Below, piece after piece: positions 7,908-35,688 of a DNA stretch of 64,000 nt. The stretch spans positions 13,745 to 77,744 of the IMG/VR virus record IMGVR_UViG_3300020048_000093. One strand, written 5' to 3'. The DNA comes from a virus (taxonomy: Duplodnaviria; Caudoviricetes). The stretch's first letter is position 1. Each line of letters starts with the position of its first letter. The translations under genes were made by a program, and so were the position numbers. The notes below the pieces were generated by a model. It was not told the DNA's origin. It made no database searches and saw nothing but the letters and a program-made list of their open reading frames with translations.

Positions 7908-9377
7908 ATGATTTTGGTACGTGTAAATAAAGCAATGATCGATGCGTTGATGGAAAAGTCTCGCAAAGGGACGCATTTGGTCCCTGAAAAGAGAATAGTT
8001 ACCCGTGACGGAAAGACCTTCCAGATGACTGTGTGGGTGGATCCCAGGGACAAAGCGGCACCGGCGCAGGGTGGTTTTGACTTTGATGAAAAACCCGTTG
8101 CAAAGAAGAATACCAAAACAGCTGCGGAAATGAATAAAGAAGTATCTGATAAACGAAAAAAGGACGCCTCCTATGAATATCGAGCGAAAGGCGATATGGT
8201 ACAGGTAAGGAAGCCAGGTTCTTCTACATGGGACAATCTTGCACCTACAAAGGATGCCGTTACAGCAAAAAAGCTTTCGGAAAAAATGAATGATGATGAC
8301 GCTTCAGAAGCGCAGATCGACGCAGGTGGGGAAGCCGCACGAGCTCAGGATGACTTCGCCGAACACATGATTGGCAAGGGAAATCTAAAATCTGGTAAAC
8401 TAAAGGATATATCAGTATTGCTCGATAGGCAATTTGGTGTAGATTTGTTGCCAGAAGAGGTTTCTGATTATCTCAGCAAACACGGCATCAGTGATAAAGG
8501 TCTTTCAGTTGATATAGCCGCTTCGATAAGCAAGAAACTGAGATCAGACCTTGTTGGCTTGGCAGGTGGCGGACATACGGTACCAAAAGTTACAACGACC
8601 GAAAAAGCAAATCGTACGCGAAGTGAGATACTCAAGGAAGCAAGCTTAGCCTTGGATGAAGTAAGAAATTTCCACTATCACGGAGACAAATTCAATACAA
8701 CATACGAGTTGGCACGTGCAATTGGAAACGGTGAGATTGACACTGCATCCGCCTTGCATGAAGTTCGCGAAGCGTTCTCCATGATGACAAACCGCAAGCT
8801 GCACAATGGGAAGTTCCCAGATACTTACGCGATTGCAAACGCTATAGACGAATTGAAGAAACCAAGCAATGAAACCCTTGAACAGAAAAAGGTTAAAACT
8901 TCTGTAGAACCAGAAGTAACCTATGAAAAATATCATCATCACGGAGATGACGATGCAATGAACTACAAGGAAATGCCAAAGGATACGCCAAAAGAATCCG
9001 TCAAAAAAAACGAAAGCCTTCTTTCAAAGCTTGGGATCGGGCCAGTTACGGAAGCTGAAAATGAAGAATTTGAACAGTTTATGGTTTGGGAAAAGGAAAA
9101 TAAATATCAAGCAAGGAATAGCAGCAGTCCGTATCAGGCAAGAAAGGACCTAAAAAAAATACAGGAGCTAATGGAGATACATCCTGTTGTTTTGATTCCT
9201 GTGATGGAAAAATTGTATGCGCAGGGGGTGAATTCCGACGCACTTGCGCCTTTCGTGAGTATAATTAAAAAAACGCGAGAGACAGGTAGTCCTTTTACGG
9301 TAGATAAGCCCATGAAATTCGGTATAGAAAAGTCTATCGGCCTGTTCGTCCAGGGTATGATTAAGGGCAAAAAATAA
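7908..9377 (+). CDS. Putative capsid-packaged protein with shared N-terminal sorting motif
   Basis: EKSRKGTHLVPEKRIVTRDGKTFQMTVWVDP then QGGFDF; lies between portal and MuF. Confidence 0.75.
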   Translation: MILVRVNKAMIDALMEKSRKGTHLVPEKRIVTRDGKTFQMTVWVDPRDKAAPAQGGFDFDEKPVAKKNTKTAAEMNKEVSDKRKKDASYEYRAKGDMVQVRKPGSSTWDNLAPTKDAVTAKKLSEKMNDDDASEAQIDAGGEAARAQDDFAEHMIGKGNLKSGKLKDISVLLDRQFGVDLLPEEVSDYLSKHGISDKGLSVDIAASISKKLRSDLVGLAGGGHTVPKVTTTEKANRTRSEILKEASLALDEVRNFHYHGDKFNTTYELARAIGNGEIDTASALHEVREAFSMMTNRKLHNGKFPDTYAIANAIDELKKPSNETLEQKKVKTSVEPEVTYEKYHHHGDDDAMNYKEMPKDTPKESVKKNESLLSKLGIGPVTEAENEEFEQFMVWEKENKYQARNSSSPYQARKDLKKIQELMEIHPVVLIPVMEKLYAQGVNSDALAPFVSIIKKTRETGSPFTVDKPMKFGIEKSIGLFVQGMIKGKK

Positions 9378-9379
9378 GC

Positions 9380-10714
9380 ATGGAATATAAACTCACAGTC
9401 CAGAACGTCAACGATACCAACCGGCGACATAAATACCTGGCGGCGGTAGATTCTCTGGCCAAGGCCATGAAGGTACCGGTGTCGCTCAAGCCAAAGAAGT
9501 CCGACAAGGAAGAGAAATTCCCGTATCGTTCCTATCAGGATCTTGTGCAAAAGTGGGTTTATTACTATGCCGGTATGCTGGACCAGATATATGATACGGC
9601 TTGTGAGGTGTTTGACCTTCCAAAGATTCAGACATTCAGCAAGGCTGCGTATTCTGGAAAGCTCATGTACAAGGGCAAGATTCTATATCAGCCAGACACC
9701 GGATTGCCGATAACCAACAAACAGTGGAATGACTTCGTAAAGGCACTGGACCGGTATCTTAATCAAGGGCTTGAGAATGCCGGAGACAGAATCGTTCTTG
9801 ATTCGCAAGCCCTCGGGAAAATCCTTGATCGTATGCTCAAATACCAGTCATGGGGCGGGATAAAAAACACCAGATTGGAAGACATGCTTTACAAGAAACA
9901 TAATTTTGACTATTTATCCGATGAAAGAAACTATCGCAAGGTGTTCGGGGTTCCGGATTATGAGGCAGACCGACTGACCGTGGCAAAAGAGCATTGCGCC
10001 ATGTATATTCGGGGTATTGAGGATCAAACCAGGACGGCGATAAAAAAGACTTTCATAGCCGGAATAAAGGAGCGGAAGTCAAAAAGTGCCGTCTCCCAGG
10101 ATTTGTTCGACAAGTTCGGATCATTGAATAAGGACTGGCAGCGGATAGTTGAAACGGAAACAAACGACAATTTGAACACCGGAATACTGTTATCAGAACG
10201 AACGGTAATGAAAGAAGGCGATAAGCTCTATTTCCAGCGCATTGAAATGAAGGATGAAATAACTTGCGATCACTGCAACCGGATAAACGGCATGGTGGTG
10301 TTATGGTCAGATACGGCTCTTGAAGACGAAAGAATTCAAGACCAATATGCTGACGTAGCGATATGGGAAGGAAAGACCCGCGTGGGACATGGATCGAAAG
10401 ACGAATGGGTAGCGGCCGGCAGTCAGCATCCCTGGTGCAGGGGGCTATGGACAAAGTGGAATCAACCGGAAGAAGGCGAGACAATCAGCCTGCATGACGC
10501 GGCCATAGCAAAGATGAAAAGCCGTGAAGCAGCATGGGGAGCAGCGGTAAAACAGGCAACTTCCGAATTCAACAATAGCGGTACTAAGAACCCGGACGAT
10601 ACGACGGCCGGCTTCCGTGAACGGATCAACGAGCTTTACAATGCTTCGGGCGAAAACGATAAGGGCAAGTGGGCGAAGGACTGGTTCAAGAATAACTGGC
10701 AAGGAGACGAATGA
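9380..10714 (+). CDS. MuF / SPP1 gp7-like minor head protein
   Basis: WQRIVETE, TCDHC, HPWCRG motifs; head-module position. Confidence 0.88.
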   Translation: MEYKLTVQNVNDTNRRHKYLAAVDSLAKAMKVPVSLKPKKSDKEEKFPYRSYQDLVQKWVYYYAGMLDQIYDTACEVFDLPKIQTFSKAAYSGKLMYKGKILYQPDTGLPITNKQWNDFVKALDRYLNQGLENAGDRIVLDSQALGKILDRMLKYQSWGGIKNTRLEDMLYKKHNFDYLSDERNYRKVFGVPDYEADRLTVAKEHCAMYIRGIEDQTRTAIKKTFIAGIKERKSKSAVSQDLFDKFGSLNKDWQRIVETETNDNLNTGILLSERTVMKEGDKLYFQRIEMKDEITCDHCNRINGMVVLWSDTALEDERIQDQYADVAIWEGKTRVGHGSKDEWVAAGSQHPWCRGLWTKWNQPEEGETISLHDAAIAKMKSREAAWGAAVKQATSEFNNSGTKNPDDTTAGFRERINELYNASGENDKGKWAKDWFKNNWQGDE

Positions 10715-13700
10715 TGAATGCATTCCAAAGACTAATGATACCGGTTCAAGATATGCTAGAAAAGGCTCGGCGATATAACCCGAAACTGGTACAGAGAACA
10801 ATAACCGTTACGAATAAAGACGGAACAACATACACCAAGCGGGCATGGGTAGACCCTACCGAAAAGGACGCTGAAAAGCCGAAGAATGTACAGTTCGATC
10901 TTTTCGGAGGCGACGATGCCCCTATTCTCGCCGTTTCGGTGGAAAAAAAGGCCGATAGCGGCACGGTGAATAACCGGACAGATACAGGAGAGGAATCGAA
11001 CGATATCAAGAGCGTTCGGCAGCGTGTTTTCAATTCCATGAAAAGAGAAGGGTATACTCAAAAAGAGGCGGATTACAGTACTGAATTCAAGAAACGGGTG
11101 TCAGATACTCTCAAAAAGAAAGCAGAAATCAGTGCCCGAAACAGGGAAAAAACCAATGTTTTGCCCGTAAAAGGCCCAGAAACTACCCGTAAACAGGTGG
11201 AATTACCTGAAATTGAGGGCGAAAAACAAGCCGTTTACGATACCGTACATGAAACCCCGCCAAGCAACCGTGGTGATTTGGACGTTTCAATAGTTGATAC
11301 CGACTTCAGGGATTATGGATCATGGTCCGGAAAAGGAAAGAACCTCAATCCAGCTGCACGAGGAAAGCTCAATCAAGAGGTTGCGGAATTACTTTTGAAA
11401 AGCCGGGATTCTCTCACAGAAGAGGACAAGGGAAAGATTCAGAAATATTCAGGCTTCGGCGGGGTGAAGGCAGCCGACGAGCGCGGGGTGCTTTATGACT
11501 TTTACACCTCTCCGCCTGTCGCAAAGATGGCATGGAAGATGCTGGACAAGATAGTTCCAGTCCAAGCAGGGGAATCGGTGCTTGAACCCTCGTGCGGATC
11601 GGGAGTGTTCTTTGACGTTACTCCTGCCGGCGTGGAGAAAACCGGCGTCGAGTTGGATACCAGGACGGCCGCAGTTGCCTCTATCCTTCAGGAAGGCGCA
11701 AACATACATACCGGATCATTCGAGCAATTCAATATGCACAACACCAAGCGGTTTTCACGGGTTATAGGCAATGCGCCTTTCGGGGACCGGTCGGTTACAA
11801 CCTCATTCATGGATATGCCGGAAGAAAAAAGCCTTGATAAGTATTTTATATCTCGGTCAATTGACGCTCTTGTGGACGGCGGGTCAATGGGGCTTATTGT
11901 GCATCCGGGTGTGCTCGATGGGAAAAGCAACAGGGATTGGCGAGCCGAACTCCAAAAGAAGGGTCAGTTCATGGGAGCGGTACGGTTGCCGAACGGATCA
12001 TTTAAGCATACACAGACCGGCGTGCAGCCGGATATGCTTTTTTTCCGCAAGTATCCCGAAGAGGTCCAGAAGCGACTCGATCAGCTCGATGAGTCCGGCC
12101 TGAAGGAAGCGGGTTTCTGGCACGAGGGATGGGCGGAAGGAACCTACTACGATGAAAACAAGACCCATATCCTCGGGGAGCTAAATGAGGGAGGTGGAAA
12201 CTGGGGATCGGACGTTGTTGAAGGGGACCTTTCACTATCAGATATGGACAAGGCAATAGCGACATTCAATCCAGAACCGGACAAAACAACCGCTGATTTG
12301 GACAAACTAAACAGCATGACGACAAAACTGGCCGGCGAAAATAAAAAAGTGGAATCCATGCTTACCGAATCAGAGGCCGAGGCGGTTGCCTGTAAAACAC
12401 TTTCCGTTGGCATGACAAAGAGCATTGACGGAAAAGTCTACCGGCTCAATGAAAACCATCGTTGGGAACTGGTAAAGGGAGCCGACGAAACAACTTCTGA
12501 AAAGCTGGAAAAAGTGAAAGCCATTGCCGAGAAGGTGAAGGCGATCCGGGAAGCGATGCATAATGACGAACCGGTAGATGATCTCCAGAGGGAGGCCCGT
12601 ACTCTGCTCCAGGACTATAAAGATGAGCATGGGACAAACCCGATGGATGACAAGGATGTAAAGCGCCTGCTTACGGCCCATGCCTCACTTTCCGGAGTGT
12701 ACGAGGGCCTGGTCGATATAGATGATGATATTCTCAACAAACAGAATGTATACGCCAAAGAGATTGATATTGTGGACGGCCATAATCCGGCCGTCACGGC
12801 CCTTCTTACCCTGCAGAAAAACATGCTGGAAGCAACACCTGCAAACATACAGAGTTACTTTCCAAACGATATCGACGCGCTTATGAAGGAATTACAGGAC
12901 AACAAAGACTGCTTCCTGACACCTGACGGAAGCTGGGAGCTGCGGGAAGACTTCATTGCCGGTGACGCGTGGGTAAAAATTGATGCCCTGAAAGCCGCAA
13001 TCGAGGAACACGATGGAGATAAATGGGTCAATGAGCGGGCAAAGTGGCAAGCGGGAATTACCGATCTGGAAGCGGCAGTTGGCTGGACAAGCATCGAAGA
13101 AGCCGAATTTACGCCTCAATCTTCATGGATTCCTGAAGAAATCATAAATAAATGGGCCAAAGACCCGGACGGAATGGCTATTCAATATGCCCTGTCAGAC
13201 AAGGTTCTTTCCCGGAACGAAGAGGGAAAGTGGGGCGTCAAGGGAACGAAAGACAAATATATCCGTCCCAAAAACTGGCGGGATGAGGGTGAAACGATAG
13301 AAGCTGGAACTTGGTACCCATTGAATGACGAAATCGCTTATTTTCTCAATCTGCAAAAACAGCGATCAAAGAATATCGATACCGAAACGTATGACACCAA
13401 CGCACGGGAAAACTTCAAGAACTGGGTAGCAAACAATCCGAATGTTCGGATGGAGCTCGAAGCACTGTTTAACCGTAAGTTCAATTGTGATATCGGTACG
13501 CCTACTAAAACCTATGCGGTAAAGATAGACGGTTGGAATCCGTCCGTTATCTTGGGCGGGCATCAGTGGCAGACGATCCACCACCTCTATCGCGCCGGGA
13601 AGGGTATTACGGCTCTAGGTACTGGCTTTGGCAAGACACTGGCTTCGGTTGGCCTTATGGCCCTGCTTCGACAAGAAGGCAAGGTGAAGCGCCCTATGGT

Positions 13701-16446
13701 GCAGGTCCCTAACAATAAGGTCAAAGACTGGGTAAAGACGTTTGCAAAGGCCATGCCGGGCCTCAAAGTCGGATCCGTTGATCCTGAATCTGAAGGATAC
13801 GGCAATCAAGTCAAGCGCTATAAAATGTACCAGGATCTTGCAAATGGCGATTACGATGTAATAATCCTGCCTGAATCGTCGGCAACCGAAATTCAATTGA
13901 GTGAGGAAGAGGACGCCAGGATAACTTCGGACGTTGTATCTGCTCAGATTATGGACAAGACTGCGGGGAAGAGTGACCGGAAGGTGGCAACCGCGAAAGA
14001 ATCGGCTCTTGGAAAGATGCAGAACGGAAAAACAAACAAAACCATTTCGTTTGAGGATCTTGGATGCGATGCGCTTTTCGTAGATGAGGCCCATAACTAC
14101 AAAAATTTGTTCAGCAGCACGCTGTCCAGGGAAACAGGAATGAATGACGGTCGCCGTTCAGATCGCGCCATGAGTCTGTTCAAGAAAAGTGAGTTTATAC
14201 GACATTCACATGATGGAAAAAACGTGTTCCTTTGCACGGCAACACCGCTTACGAATTCGCCTCTCGAATACTACAATATGCTCATGCACGTAGCACCGGA
14301 AATGCTTACAAAGCTGTCGATAAACAATATCGATGACTTTATCAGGAATTTCGCCGATATCGAAACGGGCATGAAGTGCGACTGGGGATCGGGAAAAGCC
14401 AAAGAAGGCCGGATACTGAAGGGATTCAAGAATCTCCGGTCCCTGCAAGATATGTTTTTCAAGTATACCGATCTTCAGAACGATTCAACAAAAATCGGTC
14501 TGGCAAAGCCGTCCGCAAACAATGTTCCCAATGTGATACCAATGCAGAAGGAGCAAACGGAAGAATTGCGTGATATATCGGCCCAGCTTGAAGAATTCAA
14601 AAACGCAAGCAAAGACGAAAAGGCCGCAAAATATGAAGGAGAGAATTATCTTACCTTCTATTCCAGGATGCGGACCGCTTCACTCGATCTTGAGCTCTAT
14701 GATCCGGTAAAGTACAAGGGGTGGAAAAACCCGAAGCTCGAAAAGCTTGCCCAGAACGCAATGGACAGCTTTACAGCGACTTCAGGGGGGCAGGTGATAT
14801 TCTGCGACCGGGTATTGTCCGGGGACGGCTCCATGAACATGCACGATAAGATCAAGGCCGAATTAGTTGCCAAAGGATTCAAGGAATCTGAAATTGTCGT
14901 AGTAAACGGGACAACAAAGACCGGAGGGGCAAAAAGTGATTCTGCCCTTGAGCACCTGGTATCCGAAGCGATAGACGGCTTCAATACGGGAAAGTACAAG
15001 GTTATAATCGGGACGACGCCTACGCTCGGGGAGGGTGTTAACCTTCAGAAAAATAGTGCAGCCCTCCATCATTTTGATATTCCATACCGTCCCTCAGACT
15101 TCATTCAGCGAAACGGTCGTATCGACCGTCAGGGAAACAAGCAGGGGGATGTTGCGCTGCACACGTACCTTTCGGCCGGCACAATCGACAATTACTCGGT
15201 CAATCTGGTCCAGAACAAGGCAAACTGGATCGACCAGCTCTTGAAAACGAAGTCGAACGTGTTCATGAACCCGAATGATGACTCGTATGTTGATCCGGAC
15301 GAATTGCTATTGGCCCTCACGGAAGAATGGGGAGACAAGGATAAGGCCGTAGATCGAAGAGCCGAAATGAACAAAATCAAGGCAGACAAGATTCAGGAAG
15401 CCAATCAAAACAAGGTTCATGACATGATGGGGGCATTGAGCCAGATGCGCGGTTCAATAAATGGATATCAGGGGGACAAGGGAACGGTACAATATCAGAA
15501 CCGGGTCAGGAAAATTCAAAGCATCGAAGATTCTCTCCGTAACAATACCGAATTCAAGAATCTCGATTTGCTTACAGAAAACCCTCCCGATTTTATCTAT
15601 GACAAGAAAAAGAGGCGAGCATACCAGAAAGGCGATAAATTCATGCTCACGGATGGAATTTTTGAGGTGAAATCGATAAACCATAAAAATCAGAAAATGG
15701 TACTCGTGGGTCTTGATGGGGCAACCAGCACAGAATGGTCGGCCAGTGATGGTTTGTATGGAAACTATTCGTACAAAGGAAAGGCCAACGACGAAGAGAT
15801 AAAGAAACTCCAGACGCTTTACTCCCAAAATGAATATGCCGAACAAACACCGGAATTCAAGAAGGATAATTACAAACGGTATATGTCGTTTGTTAAAATC
15901 AGACCACAAGATTTAATTTTCGAGGCACGCGAGGATACTGAGGGAAAAATCCGTATAGGACGGGTAAGCAGCTATACGCAGCGGGATCGGACACCGAGCT
16001 CGCTCATCAATCCGTATGAACCGGAAGGACGTTCCCGTATCGAAGCATACTTGAAGGGAAACGATCATGAAAACATGGATGCCTCTGCCGCGAGTGACCC
16101 GGTATTCAAAGAACTGGGGCTATCGGAAGGAATAAAAACGGCAGTAATAGCCGATTATCATGCCAAACCGGAGTCGAAGTTTATCGATGCAGAAGTTGGT
16201 AGTACCTGGGTTAGTGCCAAATCGATAGCGGAGAAGATGAACGTTGCTCTTGGTAATTCCGAAAATGACAAGGTACGGGAGTATGATATAAAGAACGTAG
16301 CAGAGATGCACCCTGACTACGAGACTGATTATGAACGAATCGGGCGTGATTATGATTGGCGAATACGTCGTAAATCGGTAGAAAAGGCAATAAAATCTGG
16401 CTATCTAAAACCGCAAAAACTGCTTATAATGGGCATAAAGAGGTGA
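10711..16446 (+). CDS. DarB-like N6-MTase-fold plus SNF2 (DExH) helicase fusion, putative injected protein
   Basis: YSGFGG, FYTSP, LEPSCGSG, GNAPFG (MTase); LGTGFGKT (13615), DEAH (14083), QRNGRIDRQG (helicase); shared N-terminal motif. Confidence 0.9.
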   Translation: MMNAFQRLMIPVQDMLEKARRYNPKLVQRTITVTNKDGTTYTKRAWVDPTEKDAEKPKNVQFDLFGGDDAPILAVSVEKKADSGTVNNRTDTGEESNDIKSVRQRVFNSMKREGYTQKEADYSTEFKKRVSDTLKKKAEISARNREKTNVLPVKGPETTRKQVELPEIEGEKQAVYDTVHETPPSNRGDLDVSIVDTDFRDYGSWSGKGKNLNPAARGKLNQEVAELLLKSRDSLTEEDKGKIQKYSGFGGVKAADERGVLYDFYTSPPVAKMAWKMLDKIVPVQAGESVLEPSCGSGVFFDVTPAGVEKTGVELDTRTAAVASILQEGANIHTGSFEQFNMHNTKRFSRVIGNAPFGDRSVTTSFMDMPEEKSLDKYFISRSIDALVDGGSMGLIVHPGVLDGKSNRDWRAELQKKGQFMGAVRLPNGSFKHTQTGVQPDMLFFRKYPEEVQKRLDQLDESGLKEAGFWHEGWAEGTYYDENKTHILGELNEGGGNWGSDVVEGDLSLSDMDKAIATFNPEPDKTTADLDKLNSMTTKLAGENKKVESMLTESEAEAVACKTLSVGMTKSIDGKVYRLNENHRWELVKGADETTSEKLEKVKAIAEKVKAIREAMHNDEPVDDLQREARTLLQDYKDEHGTNPMDDKDVKRLLTAHASLSGVYEGLVDIDDDILNKQNVYAKEIDIVDGHNPAVTALLTLQKNMLEATPANIQSYFPNDIDALMKELQDNKDCFLTPDGSWELREDFIAGDAWVKIDALKAAIEEHDGDKWVNERAKWQAGITDLEAAVGWTSIEEAEFTPQSSWIPEEIINKWAKDPDGMAIQYALSDKVLSRNEEGKWGVKGTKDKYIRPKNWRDEGETIEAGTWYPLNDEIAYFLNLQKQRSKNIDTETYDTNARENFKNWVANNPNVRMELEALFNRKFNCDIGTPTKTYAVKIDGWNPSVILGGHQWQTIHHLYRAGKGITALGTGFGKTLASVGLMALLRQEGKVKRPMVQVPNNKVKDWVKTFAKAMPGLKVGSVDPESEGYGNQVKRYKMYQDLANGDYDVIILPESSATEIQLSEEEDARITSDVVSAQIMDKTAGKSDRKVATAKESALGKMQNGKTNKTISFEDLGCDALFVDEAHNYKNLFSSTLSRETGMNDGRRSDRAMSLFKKSEFIRHSHDGKNVFLCTATPLTNSPLEYYNMLMHVAPEMLTKLSINNIDDFIRNFADIETGMKCDWGSGKAKEGRILKGFKNLRSLQDMFFKYTDLQNDSTKIGLAKPSANNVPNVIPMQKEQTEELRDISAQLEEFKNASKDEKAAKYEGENYLTFYSRMRTASLDLELYDPVKYKGWKNPKLEKLAQNAMDSFTATSGGQVIFCDRVLSGDGSMNMHDKIKAELVAKGFKESEIVVVNGTTKTGGAKSDSALEHLVSEAIDGFNTGKYKVIIGTTPTLGEGVNLQKNSAALHHFDIPYRPSDFIQRNGRIDRQGNKQGDVALHTYLSAGTIDNYSVNLVQNKANWIDQLLKTKSNVFMNPNDDSYVDPDELLLALTEEWGDKDKAVDRRAEMNKIKADKIQEANQNKVHDMMGALSQMRGSINGYQGDKGTVQYQNRVRKIQSIEDSLRNNTEFKNLDLLTENPPDFIYDKKKRRAYQKGDKFMLTDGIFEVKSINHKNQKMVLVGLDGATSTEWSASDGLYGNYSYKGKANDEEIKKLQTLYSQNEYAEQTPEFKKDNYKRYMSFVKIRPQDLIFEAREDTEGKIRIGRVSSYTQRDRTPSSLINPYEPEGRSRIEAYLKGNDHENMDASAASDPVFKELGLSEGIKTAVIADYHAKPESKFIDAEVGSTWVSAKSIAEKMNVALGNSENDKVREYDIKNVAEMHPDYETDYERIGRDYDWRIRRKSVEKAIKSGYLKPQKLLIMGIKR

Positions 16447-16449: not shown

Positions 16450-16833
16450 ATGTTTTATGACAATGAATTTGTTGATACATTGGAGAAAAGCCTCAAGATT
16501 CCGGCAGGGATACCCTATTTATACCAGATGGCGAAAACCATCGGGGACATGCTGGAAACAAACAAAATGATATACAAATCTTTCGGCGTATACTGGTGGG
16601 CAATGAAAGAGGCACTACAGGCCTATTGTCCAAACAGGAACGCATGGTTCATGGGAACTTACACGGATCACCTCATGAAAGAACGGGCGTGGCATGGTTC
16701 TTTGTTCCGATCCGTTCTTGCAGCGGTATACTATCATAGCCAGCAGGACACCTATACCAGTGACCATTACTGGGAAGACAGCGATGGAATCGAGCACGAT
16801 TACACGCTTTTCGATGAAGACGCGGGATGCTGA
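16450..16833 (+). CDS. Hypothetical protein downstream of the DarB-like gene
   Basis: RBS gaggtg; begins LEKSLKIPAG. Confidence 0.8.
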   Translation: MFYDNEFVDTLEKSLKIPAGIPYLYQMAKTIGDMLETNKMIYKSFGVYWWAMKEALQAYCPNRNAWFMGTYTDHLMKERAWHGSLFRSVLAAVYYHSQQDTYTSDHYWEDSDGIEHDYTLFDEDAGC

Positions 16834-25544: not shown

Positions 25545-28500
25545 ATGAGTTTTTTTATGATTGAAGATTATTCGTATAATGATAGTGACCTGGCAAATTT
25601 GAGAAAATCAGGCGCTCTTAACCTTGAGGTGGGCGGGTATACCGAACTTTCCATGAGAGAATATTTTGCCATGCAAAAATCATTGAAGGTGGCAAATGAG
25701 TATATCCGGATGCAAAAAGGCATTAAAATACCGGCAGGCGGGCGATGGATCACTGTTCACCCGAACGGAGGAGACGAAAAAGGGACTCCACTGCTCATTC
25801 AGGAGACGGGAGAAAAAGGAACCGCGCACGTTATCGCTGGGGCCGGGGGAAAGCTCAATGGCCTGAAGCTCAACAAGATAAAAAGCAAAGAAGAGTATAA
25901 GGAAAAATCTGAACAGCGAAACGAGGAAAAGAAAAAGAAGAAACTCGAAGACCGCCTGGCAGAACAGGAAACTGTGTCACAGATGAGCTCTGAAAAGCGC
26001 AAGGAATATAAAGAAGGAAAGAAGGCCGCAAAAATAAACGCCAAAGAAACAGAGAGTAACGACAAAAAAGCACGAGCCGAGGCCGAACAAGAATTCGTAA
26101 ACCACATGGCCGGCGTGATGGGTTGGGAGCAAGAAGAGATAGAAGAGGACTTTGCAGAACGCAGAAAAGCGATTTATCAGCAGCTTGAGGATTGCGATGA
26201 CAAGGCACTTGAAAAAAAGCTGGGTAAAGAACTTGAACATATAAACAAAGCCGAGGAACGCGCAATTAAAAGTCAGCGTTCGAATTTTCTATCGGCATCA
26301 AAAGAAGCTATCAAACAGATTCAGCGGGAACTTCTTGTAGACTCCGAAATGAGGCAACAGGTTGAAGCAGGGCTTGGTGGTTCATCCGGAGCCGAAGACG
26401 TTATACGTAAAGAAAACGCAGGAAACAGCAAAGGGTTCCAGGCCGAATACCGGGACAATGCCGAGAAAAAAGGCGGCCTGGATAACAAAGCTCTTGAGAC
26501 TGAAAAGAGAGAGGCCTTTGAGAAGCGCATGACTGAAATAGCACAAGAAAACCCGAACCTTGCTGCCATGATCTCCGGTGGCATAAAAACCAACAAGGCC
26601 ATTAACGATATAAAGAAAGACGTGTATACCAAAGAAGAGACCCCGATTACTCCAATTTCAGAGGTAGATAAGAAAACCGAGTTACTAAAAAACTATCTTG
26701 AAATGAAAAAGAAGCTAGCCGATATTGATAAAAAGAACGAGCCAGGGGTCCAGATAAACCTTGAAGGAACTCCAGAAGAGGCCGAGGACTCTGTTGACGG
26801 GCTTGTTTATGGAAAGGGAGTTTCAATCGACTATGCCGAACTGCTAGACAATGAGCTTGAGGATGAAGCCGAACAGATAAAGACCGAACGACAGGCCGCC
26901 GTTCATTCGTCACTACTCGATACCATCGACAAAAATCCCGGAGGATCCGCGAAATGGATAGCGAACGGGAATTATTCCGGTTTCAGTTCAATCGCCCTTG
27001 CTGCCATGAAAACCGAAGGGATTGATCGTGATGCCGTGGATATTTTAGGCGTTGGCGCAAGCTCGAAGCTGGTTGCCATGATGGCCCGGCGCTCGATGAC
27101 CAAAGAAGACTACCAGGACTTCTCCTATGGTATGCAGAAATATCACGAAGAGGTAAACGAATCCATAGCAAAGGATGCGGTAGAAAAAGGGAAAGACCTT
27201 ATAGCGCGGGCGGAATCTATCAAAGCGGAAATCGACGCCAATCCCGACGATCTGGCCGTGGCAAAAGAGCTGAATGAATCTCGGCTTTCCTATCTTGACG
27301 AGGCCAATAGGGTAGTCGGCCAGGCACTCGGGTCGCTTGAATCATCGGCAGCTATGGTTTTGGCTCTGAAGGATGGCAAGGACCCTGAATCGCTCGAAGT
27401 GAACCTCGGCGCTGTCTCGAACGAGGACGCGATCGTCAAGATGCACGCCCTTGGGCTCGAAAAGGGAGATTTTACCATCAACGCTGCCGGAGAAAACAAA
27501 GTCGTTACCATTACCGGAGTGGATAAACTGGTCAAGCCGGTTGATGCAGAAGAATTGCGTATCGAACAGGAAGTATCGGCAATCAAGGCCGGCGCAATGG
27601 ACGAGGACGGGTGGCTTCCGGCCGGCCTGGTGGAACGAACCTCTGAAAGTTATGAGGATCCGGGTCCTGATGCGCAGTTACCGGTGGGCGATGTCGATAA
27701 TCAGTCTCTTGGATTTGATGAAAACGGCGAAGTTAATGCAAAAGGGTATCACGATACCGAAGAAGCTGCTCACAGGACGCTTGGAGAAATGCCTGAGGGG
27801 TCGATGGCATACAAGCCAATCAGCGATCTTACCTCATCTGAACAAACCGATCTACGGCGCTATTGGGAGAACAATATCTACAAGGGGAGCATGTCGGAAG
27901 CGACAGCCGGACAGGACTTTGCAGAAGGAAAAGGAATCTCACGTCAAGCGGCATGGTCAAAATTCCTGAAGGGAGAGAACGGAGGGAGCGAATCGGCAAC
28001 CATGGCCGCAATTCAAAATGACCTGATTACCAATCACTCGACTGAAGATATGTTCGGAGAAAAAGACCTTCCGCCATTGGCAAGGGTAACTCCCGGTAAA
28101 TATGAAACATATCGTGCCAATGTAACTGGCGCAAGAGAGTTGTTTGATGCAATTGCCGAATTGAATAATCCTGATACGGTAATCGACGCCAAAGAAGCTA
28201 AAAAAGAAAGCGATAAACTTGAAGCTGCATTGCCGAAAAAACTGGACGAATTGTATTCCGCACAAATGAAGGATCATTACCTGAAGTTTATGTCAGGTCA
28301 CACGGAGGATGAATTCAAGGCAGGAGAAACAAGACAGGAGCGTAGTCCGTGGGGAGAGTATGTTCGGATGCACGGGGACGTTGGAAAGGCACAAGAGGCC
28401 GTACAAGACCGCATACGGGGAGATTTCAACGATAAATTCATCAAGAATTATGGAAGAGTTACCGGGAAACGATTAAAAACACGTTCTGAGAAGATTCGGA

Positions 28501-30482
28501 ATTCGCAGGATCATGTTCTCGGTATGCTCCACAAGGACGTTCGGGATTCCTATACGCAACGATACCAGAAGGAAATGGGCGAAGCGGGTGGAGAGCTTGC
28601 CAATCGGAATAACGGTAAATTTGCAGCCGGTTCATGGAAAGACAAGCTCAATGGTTATCTGGAAGAAAAAAAGAAAGCTGATGCCCAGCAGGTTGATATG
28701 TTCGCGGACCCAGAGGATATCAAACAAGATGACGGGACGGAAATAAAGTCTATCGGAAAGCGTGCCGAGACGCAGCTTGCATCGATGTTGCCGCAGCTTG
28801 CACAAAATCAACTTCGAGGTCAGCACTTTAAGGTCAATACCATGACTTCAAAGGGCGAGCGGCAGCGGGCGATTAAAATGCTGGAATCGGCAAAGCGTAT
28901 CAATCTGTCGTTCGGAACGGGAAAGGGAAAAACCATTATCTCAATCGGGGCTTTTACAGACCTGAAAGCGCAAGGCAAGGCTAAAAGGGCAATTTTCGCA
29001 GTTCCCTCTGTCGTCCAAAGCCAATTTGGCAATGAGGTCAATGTGTTCTGTGAACCGGGAAAATTCAAGGTTCAGTCAAATCCCTCGCTCTCTCGGGACG
29101 AACGGATTGAAGCCATGAAAGAAGGCAAGAATGATATGGTGGTTTTCACTCACCAGTCGCTGCGGGATGATCTGGTTCACCTTATGGCCAAAAACAACAA
29201 TAAAACCCCAGAAGCCATGAAAGAGCACTTCAATTCGCTTGGAGCAAAGGAGCGTAAGGAATTGCTCGGGGAAACGCTCAAAAAAGAAGGTATCAATTTT
29301 GATATGATGACTGTTGATGAGGCGCACTACACAACGAACCGGAAGGGAAAGGAAGACACCACCCTGTCGAACGTCCTGGATGCCCTTAATCAGAACGTAA
29401 CGTACTTCATGAACCAAACTGCTACTCCGGTCAAGAATGACGCGTCAGAGGCCTTTGACATGCTGCACAAGGTAGCTCCGGAAAAGTTTACTGACCGGAA
29501 TGAGTTTATAAAGCGGTATGGGGTCGATGCGAGCTTCTCGAAAAAATCTCTTCAACGGCTTATAAACAGGTACAATTATGCCAGTCAGACCGTAACCGGG
29601 ACAAAGCGAATCGACAACAAGGAAACCGTCAAAATGGTTGGTTCTCAGGCAGCCGAGTATGATAAAGTCGAAACTATGTTCAGAAGGGCAAGCAAGGCGG
29701 ATAGAGCAGGAACGGCCGACGTGGAAGCCATGAAATTTCTTTCTCCGAATTCCTTCAAGAATGTTCCCGAAGAGAAGCATGAAGAAATTGCCAAACGCCT
29801 GCAGCAAGCTTCTGGAACGATCAAGGAAGAGGCGTTGAACCGGGTAGTGAATCAATACGATTGGAAGAATAATGCAAAAGTCGCACGAACACTTGAGCTG
29901 GTAGAAGCAAAGAAGTACACCGAGGACAATGCGAAAACAGCAAGCAAGGCAGGAGGACAGAAGCCGGGAGTCATATTTGCCCACAATATCCAGACGGTCG
30001 AGAACCTGAGACAGGCCATGACCGAAAAGGGGATGCGGGTGGGAATTATTCAGGGGAGCATGAGCGGTCAAGAAAAGGAAAAGGTAAAAGTGGGATTCAA
30101 TCCTTCTGATCCAAAAGATCGTATTTTTGATGTGCTTCTCTGTTCCGACGCCGGGGCAACTGGTTTGAATCTGCAAAATGCCGGGTATCTTATGAATTTC
30201 GACCTTCCTCAAACATCCTGGGTGAAGCAGCAGCGCGAGGGTCGTATAGACCGCATGGGCCAGGCTCACTCTGAAATAGAATACCATGATATCGTGACTG
30301 ATACGGACCACGAAAAAAAGAAGTGGGAACGTATTCAACGGAAAAAGGCGCTGGGAGCAATATTCGAAGAGGATCCAGGCGTACTCGATGATACTGGTTT
30401 GGCCGCTACTATCGCCAATGTCAAAAAAGAACGGTACAATACCGGTACTGAACAAACACGCGATGAAAAGAGGGCGGCATGA
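25545..30482 (+). CDS. Large coiled-coil plus SNF2/DExH helicase protein (second helicase, no MTase motifs)
   Basis: SFGTGKGKT, DEAH (29316), TATP, GATGLNLQ, QREGRIDRMG; RBS aggag. Confidence 0.88.
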   Translation: MSFFMIEDYSYNDSDLANLRKSGALNLEVGGYTELSMREYFAMQKSLKVANEYIRMQKGIKIPAGGRWITVHPNGGDEKGTPLLIQETGEKGTAHVIAGAGGKLNGLKLNKIKSKEEYKEKSEQRNEEKKKKKLEDRLAEQETVSQMSSEKRKEYKEGKKAAKINAKETESNDKKARAEAEQEFVNHMAGVMGWEQEEIEEDFAERRKAIYQQLEDCDDKALEKKLGKELEHINKAEERAIKSQRSNFLSASKEAIKQIQRELLVDSEMRQQVEAGLGGSSGAEDVIRKENAGNSKGFQAEYRDNAEKKGGLDNKALETEKREAFEKRMTEIAQENPNLAAMISGGIKTNKAINDIKKDVYTKEETPITPISEVDKKTELLKNYLEMKKKLADIDKKNEPGVQINLEGTPEEAEDSVDGLVYGKGVSIDYAELLDNELEDEAEQIKTERQAAVHSSLLDTIDKNPGGSAKWIANGNYSGFSSIALAAMKTEGIDRDAVDILGVGASSKLVAMMARRSMTKEDYQDFSYGMQKYHEEVNESIAKDAVEKGKDLIARAESIKAEIDANPDDLAVAKELNESRLSYLDEANRVVGQALGSLESSAAMVLALKDGKDPESLEVNLGAVSNEDAIVKMHALGLEKGDFTINAAGENKVVTITGVDKLVKPVDAEELRIEQEVSAIKAGAMDEDGWLPAGLVERTSESYEDPGPDAQLPVGDVDNQSLGFDENGEVNAKGYHDTEEAAHRTLGEMPEGSMAYKPISDLTSSEQTDLRRYWENNIYKGSMSEATAGQDFAEGKGISRQAAWSKFLKGENGGSESATMAAIQNDLITNHSTEDMFGEKDLPPLARVTPGKYETYRANVTGARELFDAIAELNNPDTVIDAKEAKKESDKLEAALPKKLDELYSAQMKDHYLKFMSGHTEDEFKAGETRQERSPWGEYVRMHGDVGKAQEAVQDRIRGDFNDKFIKNYGRVTGKRLKTRSEKIRNSQDHVLGMLHKDVRDSYTQRYQKEMGEAGGELANRNNGKFAAGSWKDKLNGYLEEKKKADAQQVDMFADPEDIKQDDGTEIKSIGKRAETQLASMLPQLAQNQLRGQHFKVNTMTSKGERQRAIKMLESAKRINLSFGTGKGKTIISIGAFTDLKAQGKAKRAIFAVPSVVQSQFGNEVNVFCEPGKFKVQSNPSLSRDERIEAMKEGKNDMVVFTHQSLRDDLVHLMAKNNNKTPEAMKEHFNSLGAKERKELLGETLKKEGINFDMMTVDEAHYTTNRKGKEDTTLSNVLDALNQNVTYFMNQTATPVKNDASEAFDMLHKVAPEKFTDRNEFIKRYGVDASFSKKSLQRLINRYNYASQTVTGTKRIDNKETVKMVGSQAAEYDKVETMFRRASKADRAGTADVEAMKFLSPNSFKNVPEEKHEEIAKRLQQASGTIKEEALNRVVNQYDWKNNAKVARTLELVEAKKYTEDNAKTASKAGGQKPGVIFAHNIQTVENLRQAMTEKGMRVGIIQGSMSGQEKEKVKVGFNPSDPKDRIFDVLLCSDAGATGLNLQNAGYLMNFDLPQTSWVKQQREGRIDRMGQAHSEIEYHDIVTDTDHEKKKWERIQRKKALGAIFEEDPGVLDDTGLAATIANVKKERYNTGTEQTRDEKRAA

Positions 30483-30772: not shown

Positions 30773-30816
30773 GGGTCACATGCCCTTAATCGGGTGTGTG
30801 GCCCTTTTTCTTTTTT
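30773..30816 (+). terminator. Terminator-like hairpin just before the protease gene
   Basis: 13-bp stem (with G-U pairs) GGGTCACATGCCC/GGGTGTGTGGCCC, loop TTAATC, then TTTTTCTTTTTT. Confidence 0.75.
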
Positions 30817-30834
30817 CGGTTCAACAGGAGACGC

Positions 30835-32283
30835 ATGAAAGATATTGCACTTGACGACAGAATATACCTCGAACTTCGACTGTCTAAAGCCATAGAGACC
30901 GATGCCCATGGCAATTGGATTATAGAGGCCGAAGCATCGAATGAGAATCTTGACTTTGACGGACAGGTAGTTCTTCAGCGTGCATTATCAGGATCTAAGG
31001 ATTATTTTCTCGCCAATGGCGTTATTTCTTACGATCATCGACATCTGCGAGCAGACCCCGAAGACCCGAATTGGTCGCCTGAAAAATATATCATCGGCGA
31101 ACCGATTGGTGTCACTACGCGTGGCGGCAGTACATTCGTAAAAGCAAAGCTGTATAAGTCAAACGAAGTCGCTCGGGAAATTGTAAAGAAGCTGCAGGAT
31201 GGTTCTACCAGGATGAAAACGTCAGTCGGCGGTAAACGTCCTGAAGTTGTTTCGTCATGGGACCAGAAGCTCGGTCGGGCGGTCGAAAAGGTGGTCCGGG
31301 TGCTTTGGGACGAACTGGCAATAACCTTCAAGCCGGTCAATCAAACGCTCGAACCAGTGGCATTATCAAGCGCCGCGTTCGTAAAATCCCTTGAAGCCGG
31401 CTTTGGAACCGATTCGGCAACGATGACTGGCGGACGGGCAATGATTCCTTCTGATCTGAAGACCGACGAAAGCAAGAAGGACATTTATGCACTGGCCATG
31501 GGCCTTACCTACAAAGATGTTCAGGATGAAAAACAGGCGACACAATTTCTTATAAATCGAGGCTGCACGCCTGAAAAGGCCAAGGCGGTCATTCGATATG
31601 TAATTTCACAGAAAGATCCGATTAAGGAGGAAATTTCAATGGATGCAAATCTAATCAAGTCATTCGAAGAGTCAATTTTGACACTCGAAAAGAGCATGAA
31701 GAAACCCGCGAAGGGTGCTGTTGAACCTGATGGCGACGAAGACATGGGGAAGGGTTTTACCGAATTCCCGCCCAAAGACGCTATTGAAGGAAACGACGAA
31801 CCCGATCCCGACGAGGAACTGGATGAAGACGGAAACCCCATTCAGAAACCAGCCAAACGTGTTGAGAAATCGCTGTATAACGAGTTGAAGGACACCAGTT
31901 CCGACTTTCTCGATGTGACTCCGTTTCTCGATAACCTGGCGAAAAGTATTTCCCGCCGCATGAGCGCGATGGAAAAACAGGTAACTGAAATGGTCTCTTT
32001 CCAGAAATCCATGGGTGGTGCCCTTGTGGCTACCGGGAATCTGGTAAAAAGTCTTGGTGATGGTCCGATGCCTCGTCAGGCAACCGTGAACAAGCAGGAA
32101 CGCTCGTTTACTGGATCTGATGGAAAAGTAACAACCATGACCAAATCGCAGATGCGGGATCAGGTACAGAAGGGTTTTGAAGCGGGTAAAATCTCGCTCC
32201 AGGATATGAGCAAAATGGAAGACAGAATCAACAAGGGAATCGCAATCAGCGAACCCGACATGATCTTCCTCAAGTCACTGTAA
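30835..32283 (+). CDS. Prohead protease fused to scaffold-like C-terminal region
   Basis: AEASNENLDFDGQ, NGVISYDH, IIGEP, SVGG, ELAITFKPVN; RBS caggag before 30835. Confidence 0.88.
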   Translation: MKDIALDDRIYLELRLSKAIETDAHGNWIIEAEASNENLDFDGQVVLQRALSGSKDYFLANGVISYDHRHLRADPEDPNWSPEKYIIGEPIGVTTRGGSTFVKAKLYKSNEVAREIVKKLQDGSTRMKTSVGGKRPEVVSSWDQKLGRAVEKVVRVLWDELAITFKPVNQTLEPVALSSAAFVKSLEAGFGTDSATMTGGRAMIPSDLKTDESKKDIYALAMGLTYKDVQDEKQATQFLINRGCTPEKAKAVIRYVISQKDPIKEEISMDANLIKSFEESILTLEKSMKKPAKGAVEPDGDEDMGKGFTEFPPKDAIEGNDEPDPDEELDEDGNPIQKPAKRVEKSLYNELKDTSSDFLDVTPFLDNLAKSISRRMSAMEKQVTEMVSFQKSMGGALVATGNLVKSLGDGPMPRQATVNKQERSFTGSDGKVTTMTKSQMRDQVQKGFEAGKISLQDMSKMEDRINKGIAISEPDMIFLKSL

Positions 32284-32296: not shown

Positions 32297-33712
32297 ATGG
32301 ATTTCCTACAACCGTCAAGCACGGGCGAAACAATGTTTGGCTCCGTTTCCGAAGGCGAGCTTCAGAAAGCTCTCTCTGCGGGATACGAAACCAACTCGGC
32401 TTCCATGACCGGGGGCCGTGCCCTCATTCCGGAAGATATTGAAATGAGCATGGTAAACGCCATGGCTGCCAAGAAAGAGGACTTCAAACTCACCAACCTC
32501 TTGAAGACCCAGAAAGTAAATTCGACCGTGCACGAATATACTCGGCGTAACGACGCAGGCGATCATGGAAACATTTTCGTCAGCGAAGGTGGATCCGCTG
32601 GTGCCGGAAGCCAGACGCTCGAACGCGTTACCCGCCCTATGAAATACATGCAGAACTACCGGGAAGTTACCTTGCAGATGCAGGTGGCACGGACACTCGA
32701 AGATGCAATGGCATCCGAAAAGCTTGCCGGAACACTTACCATCCTGAAGGGTCTCGAACAGGGAATGTTCCATGCGGATAGCGCGATTGTACCCGTACAG
32801 TTCGATTCGGTTCTCAAGCAGGTTAAATCAAACACTGCGAGACGCAACCTCATCGATCTTCGCGGTAAGAAGATGACAGATACGGCCGGCGAAGACTCGA
32901 TTACGGAAATTGCACGCCAGGTATTTGAGAACGGCGGAAGCCTCTCTCATACCTTCATGCCCTCCATGATCGCCCAGGACTTCCAGCTGCTTGCCAGGAA
33001 CCGCCTCCGCTTCGGTGCCGAAGACACCAAGGCAGCGATGGTAGCGATGGAATATCCGACAACCTTCTCCAGTCCCATAAAGATTGCGGGTAAAGATGCC
33101 GGTGCTGATAAAATGTTCCGCGTGAAGGGCGTTATTACCGCTTCCGGAGACGTCACGCTCAGGCCTGATGCACCTACGTTTGCAAAAGCCGCACAGGCAT
33201 TAACCGCTTCCCAGGGCCGAGGCTTTGATGCAACCACCGCAGGAACGTATTACTACACGGTTTTTGCCATTAACGAATTCGGTATTTCTGCCGGAGCAAC
33301 AGCAACCTCCCAGGCAGTAACCACGGGCCAGGAAGTTCAGCTTACCATTACCCCTGGAGCGAAGAGAGGAACCGGATATATTATCTGCCGCTCGAAAGTA
33401 GGGGCATCAGATGGTACCGATTGCCGCGAGATGGTTCGTTGTGCGGATTCCGGTTCGGCTACTACCGTTTACAAAGACCAGAACGAAGACCTCCCCGGAA
33501 CAGGCGAGATTCTGTACCTGTCCTACGATGCCGTTGAAATGACAGCACAGTTCGACCAGTTCTTGCCGCTGATGAAGTTCGATCTCTTCCCGACGCGGGC
33601 AGCGGTCACTCCGTTCCTCATCGTTCTGTTCGGTACTCCCGATATCAAAGTGCCCTGGTATCATGGTGTCGTGAAGAACGTCGGCTACACGAGCGACGGC
33701 TTCTTTAACTAA
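32297..33712 (+). CDS. Major capsid protein
   Basis: Strong RBS aaggagg; KALSAGY...GGRAL, STVHEY, LEQGMFHAD, FDSVLKQV resemble SPO1/K-type capsids. Confidence 0.92.
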   Translation: MDFLQPSSTGETMFGSVSEGELQKALSAGYETNSASMTGGRALIPEDIEMSMVNAMAAKKEDFKLTNLLKTQKVNSTVHEYTRRNDAGDHGNIFVSEGGSAGAGSQTLERVTRPMKYMQNYREVTLQMQVARTLEDAMASEKLAGTLTILKGLEQGMFHADSAIVPVQFDSVLKQVKSNTARRNLIDLRGKKMTDTAGEDSITEIARQVFENGGSLSHTFMPSMIAQDFQLLARNRLRFGAEDTKAAMVAMEYPTTFSSPIKIAGKDAGADKMFRVKGVITASGDVTLRPDAPTFAKAAQALTASQGRGFDATTAGTYYYTVFAINEFGISAGATATSQAVTTGQEVQLTITPGAKRGTGYIICRSKVGASDGTDCREMVRCADSGSATTVYKDQNEDLPGTGEILYLSYDAVEMTAQFDQFLPLMKFDLFPTRAAVTPFLIVLFGTPDIKVPWYHGVVKNVGYTSDGFFN

Positions 33713-33718
33713 GCTGAT

Positions 33719-33970: not shown

Positions 33971-35083
33971 ATGATAAACGCCGTTGTAAACAATCATGAC
34001 ATTTTGCTAACTCTGACTGACGCTTCGACCTTACCCGGATTTTTAGGGTATCGACTGGAACGTAAAACAGAAACCGGTGCATGGTTTGTCTGGAACGGCG
34101 TTTTTTTTGCCTCAAGCGGGTATGCTCCTCTGCCGGGAATTCGCTTTTCCGATTACGATATGGCAGATGGTCTTTATCAGTACCGATACGCCATAGACAC
34201 GGGCGTTTTATCCGAATATCAGTATTCCGACTGGGTGAATATCAATGCCGGCCGTGTTGGATGGTCTTTTGAAAACTATACTCCGCCAGAAGGTCTTTTT
34301 GGCGAGGTTTTGACCGCCGACGACCTCCGATATACCTATCTTTGGGGCATCGACTTCCGTGCTTCAAATGGTGATATTTTCACCGATGCACAAGTAAGAA
34401 CGAAAATAAACTCGGCAATTGATGAAATTGCACGGGCATTAAAGATAACAATCAAGAAAACACGAGTACACTGTCAGCCAGGTGCGGAACTAGTTGAGGG
34501 AATCGACTATGACGAGGCAGAAGATCCTTACGCATATAGACATGATAAGTGGCGACGCTCTGGGCGTATTGCCTTGCGAAAACGGCCTATTATTTCAATA
34601 TCTCGCTTTGATCTATACAGCATATCAGACCAGAAAATCCTTGATCTTATGACCTGGATAAGTGCGGATCACCGAAAGGGAATTATTAACTTTTTCCCGA
34701 AAGCAGGGGCCGATGGACAGTTTCGGATTGCTCCGGCTTCTATGTCGATGGGGATATCACTGATAGGAGGTGATTATCCGCATGGGTACAAGATCGATTA
34801 CGTCGCTGGATATGAAAACGCGAGCAAGGTTCCTTCAGACTTGCGTGATGTGATAGGTAAAGCTGCGGCATGTAAGTTGCTGAATATAATTGGAGATGGA
34901 TTGATAGCCGGTTTTTCATCATCTTCATTATCAATGGATGGAGTTTCGGAAAGTTTTTCTTCTACACAATCGGCAACCAATGCGTATTTCGGCGCACGTA
35001 TCCAGGTATATCTAAAGGATATTGAGTCTTATTTAAAGGAAAATCGGACAAAATTCGGCTCTTTCGTAATAGGAAGCATATAA
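33971..35083 (+). CDS. Head-tail adaptor (neck) protein with N-terminal Fn3-like domain
   Basis: LWGID, IDYVAGY, VPSDLRDVIGKAAA, SLSMDGVSESFSST motifs. Confidence 0.8.
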   Translation: MINAVVNNHDILLTLTDASTLPGFLGYRLERKTETGAWFVWNGVFFASSGYAPLPGIRFSDYDMADGLYQYRYAIDTGVLSEYQYSDWVNINAGRVGWSFENYTPPEGLFGEVLTADDLRYTYLWGIDFRASNGDIFTDAQVRTKINSAIDEIARALKITIKKTRVHCQPGAELVEGIDYDEAEDPYAYRHDKWRRSGRIALRKRPIISISRFDLYSISDQKILDLMTWISADHRKGIINFFPKAGADGQFRIAPASMSMGISLIGGDYPHGYKIDYVAGYENASKVPSDLRDVIGKAAACKLLNIIGDGLIAGFSSSSLSMDGVSESFSSTQSATNAYFGARIQVYLKDIESYLKENRTKFGSFVIGSI

Positions 35084-35688
35084 TGTCCGGAACCACAGTA
35101 GAGCTTATCAAGGCCAAAGACTACAGCAAGCTTGTACCTGAAAAAATCACCAGGGCCGATGGGTCCATCGCAACATACTGGGTATCGCCCGAGGATCGGA
35201 ACGAAGGAAAACTGAAGGGTCAGCAGAATTTATTTGACGACGCACCAAAGACCGGTGGCCGTGGTTATTTCGATGAGCTCGACAAGGGCGCTGAAGACCT
35301 TCAGATAAAACCTTTGGTAAATAAAGTTGCCGCGTATGACCCTGAGCTCGCAAAGCGACTGGAAGCAAAATATAAAAACTATCATTTTGACCGGGACACG
35401 AAAGAAAAGGACATAGAAATAGACTTTCAGACGGCATGGTGCCTGAAGCGTATGGCGGATCGTCCGGGGGAAGCTAAGGACTTTCAGGCAGAGTATCATG
35501 AGAAGACGGACAAGATGGTATCCATGTTGAACAACCGGAAAAACGCCATGCTGAAGATCAAGAAGGGGTCATCCGTGAGAGTTGGGCACGAAAATGGGAT
35601 AATAGACGGATTTTCCAAACGAGGCTTCCCTATGGTACGCGTAGGGGCAATATCACGTCCTTTATTCCATGAGGAACTTACGTTATGA
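35083..35688 (+). CDS. Putative packaged protein with the shared N-terminal motif, embedded in neck genes
   Basis: LIKAKDYSKLVPEKITRADGSIATYWVSP, then QQNLF. Confidence 0.75.
   Translation: MSGTTVELIKAKDYSKLVPEKITRADGSIATYWVSPEDRNEGKLKGQQNLFDDAPKTGGRGYFDELDKGAEDLQIKPLVNKVAAYDPELAKRLEAKYKNYHFDRDTKEKDIEIDFQTAWCLKRMADRPGEAKDFQAEYHEKTDKMVSMLNNRKNAMLKIKKGSSVRVGHENGIIDGFSKRGFPMVRVGAISRPLFHEELTL

Follow-up and report, generated by a model that had tools for sequence, protein, structure and literature searches.

In bacteriophage T4 a short N-terminal signal that can be transferred to foreign proteins, the capsid-targeting sequence, is carried by unrelated proteins that are packaged and injected (IPI-III and Alt; as recounted in PMC9024508). 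In P1 the 30 residues at the N-terminus of DarB are enough to load a reporter into the heads, and the authors saw no N-terminal consensus shared by the Dar proteins (PMC9024508). Packaging and injection have also been predicted for the phage-type polyvalent proteins, whose genes lie beside late or virion genes (Iyer et al. 2017, PMC5512222); the same paper proposes zincin-like peptidases for their processing and MuF fusions as their link with the virion. In SPN3US and similar giant phages, as outlined in PMC7411985, many head-internal or ejection proteins share a protease cutting motif with the capsid protein. Injected proteins are known for only a few model phages. We analyzed here a stretch of viral DNA of 64,000 nucleotides (“the window”), i.e. 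bases 13745-77744 of the single 77,744-base virus record IMGVR_UViG_3300020048_000093, in which five proteins carry the same module of about 50 residues (“the tag”). We describe this module, the family to which it belongs, its fusion partners, its bias for N-terminal positions, the clustering of tagged genes with head genes and a motif that the tag shares with capsid proteins. What is new here is that the most conserved residue pair of the tag, K-(A/S), matches the inferred maturation site of the capsid protein.

An initial annotation of the window had noticed five similar N-terminal motifs on otherwise unrelated proteins of the head and neck region, and these observations hold. All five motifs were recovered, in frame, at the starts of + strand open reading frames (ORFs), which begin at 7908, 10711, 16827, 18467 and 35083 and all lie between the portal gene (6186) and the neck and tail genes. 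With Pfam and PHROGs the bodies gave, in this order, no family, an N6 methylase with an SNF2 helicase (DarB-like), a Zeta kinase, phrog_22901 with an InPase, and no family. A loose pattern searched in the six frames of the window matched the five copies only. A hidden Markov model of the five N-termini (HMM A1), run against the 1020 ORFs that the whole genome of 77,744 bases has in six frames, likewise selected only those five (E from 1e-24 to 8e-34; next E 1.3). Profiles from which one copy was left out recovered the omitted copy each time, with E from 4.6e-5 to 1.1e-19, no other ORF falling below E 0.3.

Each copy contains a lysine that is a candidate cut site (see below). Copy 1 (7908-8087, + strand, as for the four others) stands on a 489-residue protein without known family (ORF 7908-9377), with the candidate cut after K17. 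Its hairpin ends with W-V-D-P (8034-8045), followed by G-F-D-F-D, and residues 14-86 of this ORF match phrog_1917, “virion structural protein”. Copy 2 (10711-10905) begins the 1911-residue DarB-like methylase and SNF2 helicase (ORF 10711-16446; candidate cut after K18), with W-V-D-P at 10846-10857 and then Q-F-D-L-F. Copy 3 (16899-17030) belongs to a Zeta-type kinase of 454 residues (ORF 16827-18191; candidate cut after K38); it ends with W-V-K-P at 17019-17030, and Q-x-D-L-F is absent. Copy 4 (18515-18676) is found on the phrog_22901 and InPase protein (ORF 18467-20641; 724 residues, or 708 from M17), with the candidate cut after K26 and W-V-L-P at 18620-18631 followed by Q-F-D-L-F. In this same ORF a second site-like motif, I-Q-E-K-S-L, occurs at residues ~78-83, about 10 residues past the Q-F-D-L-F of the tag, so that the whole tag could there be excised from both sides. 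Copy 5 (35083-35235), on a 201-residue protein (ORF 35083-35688) encoded just after the capsid gene block, has its candidate cut after K10 and W-V-S-P at 35179-35190; behind the tag come a disordered linker, a bundle of helices and a small beta domain.

A profile search of 1.84 billion protein cluster representatives returned 175 matches at E<=1e-3, 34 of them at E<=1e-10. The family counts given here were made on the best 150 of the 175 matches, four long repeat proteins being set aside, i.e. on 146 proteins with 176 copies. A copy lies within the first 30 residues in 111 of these 146 proteins (76%). Two or three copies are present in 26 proteins, internal copies only in 35, and a single copy among the 176 is near a C-terminus. 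The N-terminal address proposed at the outset thus survives as a strong positional bias but not as a simple address, and the internal-only and multi-copy proteins indicate that no free N-terminus is required when the protein is made. The profile search had itself been suggested in the initial annotation, and its outcome, a very wide diversity of cargo with tagged genes clustered with head genes, agrees with what was expected there. Pfam-A and NCBIfam gave no model over the tag segments even at E<=10, and phrog_1917 and phrog_25452 were the only PHROGs overlapping the tag. Judged by these matches, the tag is a real domain family without curated model, and not a case of local paralogy.

With tblastn of single tags in phages, matches were limited to Siminovitchvirus and one Exiguobacterium phage; we attribute to chance the matches between P0038 and T4-like baseplate genes (E 8e-3). 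Among 72,556 plasmids single-sequence searches gave nothing better than E=1, which is weak evidence for a distribution limited to phages because searches of this kind are insensitive.

The suggestion of a portable beta-hairpin tag is supported by modelling. AlphaFold2, applied to 21 sequences, predicts a helix at residues 12-21 and a hairpin formed by residues 27-34 and 40-47, the tail being disordered; the mean predicted local distance difference test score (pLDDT) is 67. The bodies that follow are unrelated and of effector type. The model of the 201-residue protein places a low-confidence linker (residues 39-66) between the hairpin and the helical bundle with its small beta domain. As modelled, the tag is an independent module, with its own helix and hairpin and a disordered linker before the body. 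Foldseek found no match to the tag model in PDB at E<=0.001, DNA-binding folds included, and none to the 201-residue protein in BFVD at the same threshold; look-ups in the ESM Atlas gave no usable match.

We interpret the sequences as a composite cargo module of ~50-65 residues, probably made of four parts. The first would be a short leader, poorly conserved. The second is a predicted amphipathic helix with a nearly invariant hydrophobic-x-K-(A/S), likely the cut site of an HK97-type prohead protease. The third, the best conserved segment, would be a basic two-stranded beta-hairpin ending with W-V-x-P. The fourth, present in about a third of the copies, is an acidic element, Q-x-D-L-F, ~10 residues further on. 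The segment that would be retained after the candidate cut is basic, with 4-7 K+R against 0-5 D+E in 26-38 residues.

The capsid protein of the window (32297-33712, + strand; SPO1/SU10 type) shares no more than 29% identity with its counterpart in any cultured phage; its closest relatives are encoded by two IMG/VR contigs, G002 (73% identity) and G003 (70%). In the family alignment, the helix of the tag has K in 149 of 150 copies, followed by A or S in 141 of 150, with a hydrophobic residue two places before K. The capsid proteins of the window, G002, G003, Bacillus phage Shanette, Exiguobacterium phage vB_EalM-132 and SPO1 have in common (D/E)-x-L-x-K-A-L-x-A-G near residue 24. Two PDB entries for the phi812-type capsid protein differ in length: 5lii has 463 residues whereas 9row_B has 439, being the same sequence minus the first 24 residues. 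In 9row the first residue is number 25, which follows directly on V-V-K, and this tripeptide is aligned with L-Q-K in the capsid protein of the window. From these chain lengths we infer that the mature N-terminus of the phi812-type protein is residue 25, after the aligned K; L-Q-K-A-L in the window (K24|A25) would be the corresponding site. The protease of HK97 cuts its capsid protein after Lys. A literature search found no statement of the mature N-terminus of an SPO1-type capsid protein.

The same motif is present in the first 70 residues of 12 of the 15 packaging and head-block ORFs and of none of the 25 fibre and tail ORFs (Fisher p 8e-8, for a grouping chosen after seeing the data). The 12 ORFs are those of the large terminase, portal, MuF, protease, capsid protein, Ulx-like protein, second helicase and the five tagged proteins. 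The portal protein (6186-7889, + strand) has L-R-K-S and the untagged MuF-like head protein (9380-10714, + strand) L-A-K-A, the former kept in G002 and the latter in relatives. The prohead protease fused to a scaffold-like region (30796-32283, + strand; phrog_1028 and phrog_15087) has site-like motifs at residues 28 and 296, and is presumed to be the enzyme for the K|(A/S) cuts. A weight matrix of the family, from which the window copies were left out, ranked the capsid site 15th of 15,580 positions. Packaging and head-block proteins make up 56% of the residues and contain 24 of the top 25 sites of this matrix. The sites of portal, MuF, protease, capsid protein and helicase are conserved in G002. 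Those of the Ulx-like protein and the terminase are probably due to chance because the former is not kept in G002 and the latter lies in a conserved segment of the enzyme. In Shanette the portal, protease, scaffold, capsid and tagged proteins have D-hydrophobic-x-K followed by S, A or G. Probably, then, a leader comes first in the tag, followed by a site for the prohead protease and by a basic hairpin that is retained.

In every genome examined several genes are tagged and these are clustered with head genes: six in G002, four in G003, five in Shanette, five in vB_EalM-132 and four in Bacillus phage CP-51. Shanette gp87, gp88 and gp90 lie immediately upstream of the genes for portal, protease, scaffold and capsid protein, as do three tagged genes in CP-51, and tagged and head genes are also syntenic in G002 and G004. 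A related contig is binned with an uncultured Spirochaetes metagenome-assembled genome (MAG). A Spirochaetes MAG of 4.7 Mb has its four matches together on a single phage-like contig of 43.8 kb; the two matches of a Hydrogenedentes MAG of 8.3 Mb are likewise on the same contig, beside a fibre gene with an Mtd_N domain.

The partners of the tag include InPase, Zeta, LPD1, LPD3, ART-PolyVal, ADP-ribosylating exotoxin, RelA/SpoT, ddrB-ParB, PBECR2/3, GNAT, HipA-like kinase, topoisomerase IB, NUDIX, DNA ligase, SAM lyase, PARP and methylase with SNF2 domains; MuF_C co-occurs in a few family members, and many tagged bodies match no family. In the multi-copy proteins each copy heads a different body, e.g. 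P0006 reads tag, ART, tag, Zeta, tag. P0004 (L015:755-5257 (-)), of 1500 residues, combines three tags with RadC, DUF5661 and DUF6582. It is encoded by the close relative G003, where it occupies the site of the separate tagged genes of the window and G002, three tag-plus-body units being joined in one ORF. A contig binned with Hydrogenedentes encodes, one after the other, a DarB-like protein, a Ulx-like protein, a tagged RelA/SpoT and a tagged InPase polyprotein. A tagged RelA/SpoT protein of a relative (L017:6297-7643) and the tagged Zeta kinase of the window (16827-18191) have the same locus position, after the DarB-like and Ulx-like genes, as if cassettes had been exchanged behind an unchanged tag. 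This swap and the fused units of G003 suggest that tagged units behave as swappable cassettes. Past the tag, the window's small tagged proteins are unrelated to those of Shanette, as is the 7908 protein to gp87. DUF5661 is often found shortly upstream of internal tag copies, with DUF6582 nearby, and both may be further parts of the same packaging and processing grammar. In precomputed Pfam lists, PF28555 appears on methylase-helicase family members only.

We propose that the module marks proteins for loading into the capsid, for trimming by the prohead protease at K|(A/S), and for retention through the hairpin until they leave with the DNA; we would put the chance that this is right at about even. 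Tagged proteins would enter the assembling procapsid with the portal, MuF, scaffold-protease and capsid proteins. The protease would then trim the leader, or cut multi-module polyproteins at each tag. The hairpin would remain at the new N-terminus and hold the cargo in the head, on the inner face of the shell or on the DNA, until exit with the DNA; its partner could be the shell, the scaffold or DNA. Since a substrate of the prohead protease must be inside the procapsid, the candidate site strengthens the case for capsid loading, short of proof. It would also explain the internal copies simply, as cut points of polyproteins. A broader version, in which one module defines the injected proteome of a wide range of phages whose heads are of the SPO1 type, polyproteins are cut at each tag within the procapsid by the prohead protease and not by a zincin, and the hairpin tethers enzymes to the shell or DNA, is more tentative, and we consider it doubtful.

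Several points weigh against capsid loading and trimming. The mature N-terminus of the reference capsid protein rests on the length of a deposited chain. The motif is fixed at only three positions and occurs 56 times in the 15,820 residues of the window proteins. The module is only internal in the 35 proteins mentioned above and some copies stand behind another domain (as in the Zeta protein of G002, where it is DUF5661); by its positions, it cannot be called an N-terminal signal in the strict sense. In Shanette two of the five tagged genes, gp30 and the ParB-like gp68 (which has an internal copy), lie a long way from the head genes, and SPO1, phage K, A511 and Bc431v3, which have the same capsid type, carry no tag. 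The confidence of the tag model is moderate. Finally, cutting, loading, the binding partner and injection are all inferred in the case of the tagged proteins.

The hairpin could instead be a nucleic-acid-binding or other working domain, used in the host after entry, the loading into heads being ensured by something else. Seen in this way, it would be common to polyvalent proteins because these work on DNA or close to it. The segment retained is basic, and a genuine K|(A/S) cut would leave the hairpin on the cargo; the hairpin also occurs internally, and DarA-Hdf of P1 contact DNA inside the head (PMC12810830). But bodies without link to DNA are also tagged (Zeta kinase, InPase, NUDIX, ADP-ribosyltransferases), the N-terminal bias is strong, no fold match to DNA-binding domains was obtained, and the two whole MAGs contain no tagged gene outside phage-like clusters. 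We regard a working domain as unlikely, although it is the most probable of the alternatives. Somewhat less probable is a module that serves for processing only, the hairpin being an exosite recognized by the protease rather than a handle for loading or retention. The near invariance of K-(A/S), the copies at module boundaries in multi-copy proteins and the presence of the motif near the N-termini of the capsid protein, portal, MuF and protease would fit such a cassette. However the capsid protein, portal and MuF carry the motif without hairpin, so that the protease would not need one, and in most cases the copy starts a single-body protein from which a cut would free only a leader of 10-40 residues.

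The acidic end of the module could suggest a third role, the docking of injected proteins on a host factor. The bacterial sliding clamp reportedly binds a motif Q-L-(S/D)-L-F, said to have been defined by Dalrymple et al. in 2001, which Q-x-D-L-F resembles. A pentapeptide of this type, Q-x-(D/S/E/N)-(L/M/I/F)-(F/L/Y), is found in 42 of 144 copies, 10.5 +/- 2 residues past W-V-x-P, and is exactly Q-L-D-L-F in four. Two thirds of the copies nevertheless lack it, including window copies 1 and 3, and the fixed spacing suggests one folded or bipartite unit and not a free linear motif; docking of this kind seems to us highly improbable. Lastly, that the similarity is a by-product of recent duplication in the phage or of chance, without common function, is favoured only by the shortness of the motif and can be considered refuted, with next to no probability left, by the unrelated bodies, the 175 clusters, the leave-one-out E values down to 1e-19 and the presence of the module in Bacillota phages, in Spirochaetes- and Hydrogenedentes-binned phage-like contigs and in IMG/VR contigs.

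The genes of the window are arranged as follows. On the + strand, the 5' part of the window encodes the small and large terminase subunits, the portal protein, the 489-residue protein and the MuF-like protein, then the methylase and SNF2 helicase, the Ulx-like protein, the Zeta kinase and the phrog_22901 and InPase protein. After the InPase gene come a block of small fibre-like genes and the second helicase (25545). Further 3' are the protease-scaffold fusion, the capsid protein, a 370-residue protein, the 201-residue protein, and the neck and tail genes. For the protease-scaffold ORF the listed GTG start is probably too far upstream (window 30796-30840), as relatives begin near M-K-D-I-A-L or M-V-N-Q-D-R.

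The second helicase, an untagged SNF2/DEAD protein of 1645 residues (25545-30482, + strand), had initially been credited with a variant of the tag. No HMM match was found there; its N-terminus (25545-25860) forms instead a different domain, R-W-I-T-V-H-P-N-G ... T-A-H-V-I-A-G-A-G-G, strongly conserved and without Pfam match. This domain follows M-(Q/R/K)-K-S-L (M-Q-K-S-L in the window) and is found in G002, G003, a Spirochaetes contig and a Hydrogenedentes contig. The second helicase may be a cargo even though it is untagged. An echo of the variant, LEKSLKIPAG, had also been read in ORF 16450, and this had to be abandoned: “KIPAG” is not conserved among orthologues. That ORF (16450-16833, + strand) encodes the small untagged Ulx-like protein (phrog_1629, E 1.4e-11), between the DarB-like and the tagged Zeta genes, and has orthologues in L017, G002 and G004. 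The Ulx-like proteins (window 16450-16833; L017:5966-6346; L013:4407-4793 (-); L016:7904-8290) have a conserved C-terminal Y-T-L-F-D-E-(D/N)-A-G, an acidic aromatic tail that recalls the F-D-L-F behind many tags. Shanette gp89 and EalM132_00062, small untagged proteins in the tag clusters of Herelleviridae, were considered as Ulx-like and proved not to be so.

If the module works as we propose, the packaged anti-defence enzymes of hundreds of uncultured phages could be recognized directly in their sequences, the division of giant polyvalent proteins into working units would be explained, and a small portable handle for phage protein delivery would be at hand. If the broader version is true, foreign proteins could be loaded into phage heads with the module as a ready-made handle. 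The module is present in cultured Bacillus phages, and the idea is therefore open to test there. The specific value of the window is its link to these cultured phages together with the shared capsid-maturation motif.

Compared with described systems, the tag has both likenesses and differences. MuF-fused polymorphic toxins of temperate phages, said to have been described by Jamet et al. in 2017, reportedly have a head-associated MuF N-terminus of ~300 residues followed by swappable C-terminal toxin or enzyme domains. One N-terminal module with swappable bodies is a shared feature, but the carrier is here a helix-hairpin of ~50 residues, none of the five tagged proteins has MuF, and the MuF-like protein of the window is separate and untagged. 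As for P1, the methylase-helicase of the window is homologous to DarB from residue ~202, with four matching stretches (best E 3.6e-38), a Ulx-like gene follows the DarB-like gene, and in the window both are encoded with head genes. By these homologies the window system is Dar-like. The differences are that one module is here common to five proteins, with a likely protease site, and that it also occurs internally; profile A1 found no match in the P1 genome at E<=10, and the N-terminus of DarB is without W-V-x-P hairpin.

The polyvalent proteins have the same domain set (InPase, ART-PolyVal, Zeta, RelA/SpoT, ddrB-ParB, PBECR, LPD1/3 and methylase-helicase) in the same late-gene context, but the processing that we propose is by the prohead protease and not by zincin peptidases. 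The module matches no Pfam LPD model; it may be the same as one of the LPDs outside Pfam. The SPN3US system relies on another motif and another protease family, and the part of PMC7411985 considered here describes no shared folded tag. T4 resembles the tag in that unrelated proteins carry a short signal at their N-termini and in that this signal is linked to cleavage by the prohead protease (a candidate link in our case). There is no sequence likeness, however, and the cut in T4 follows Glu while here it would follow Lys. Moreover the T4 signal precedes the cut and is removed, whereas the conserved hairpin comes after the candidate cut and would be kept. The tag is a new form of a known theme, that of the capsid-targeting signals of T4 and P1 and of the polyvalent proteins.

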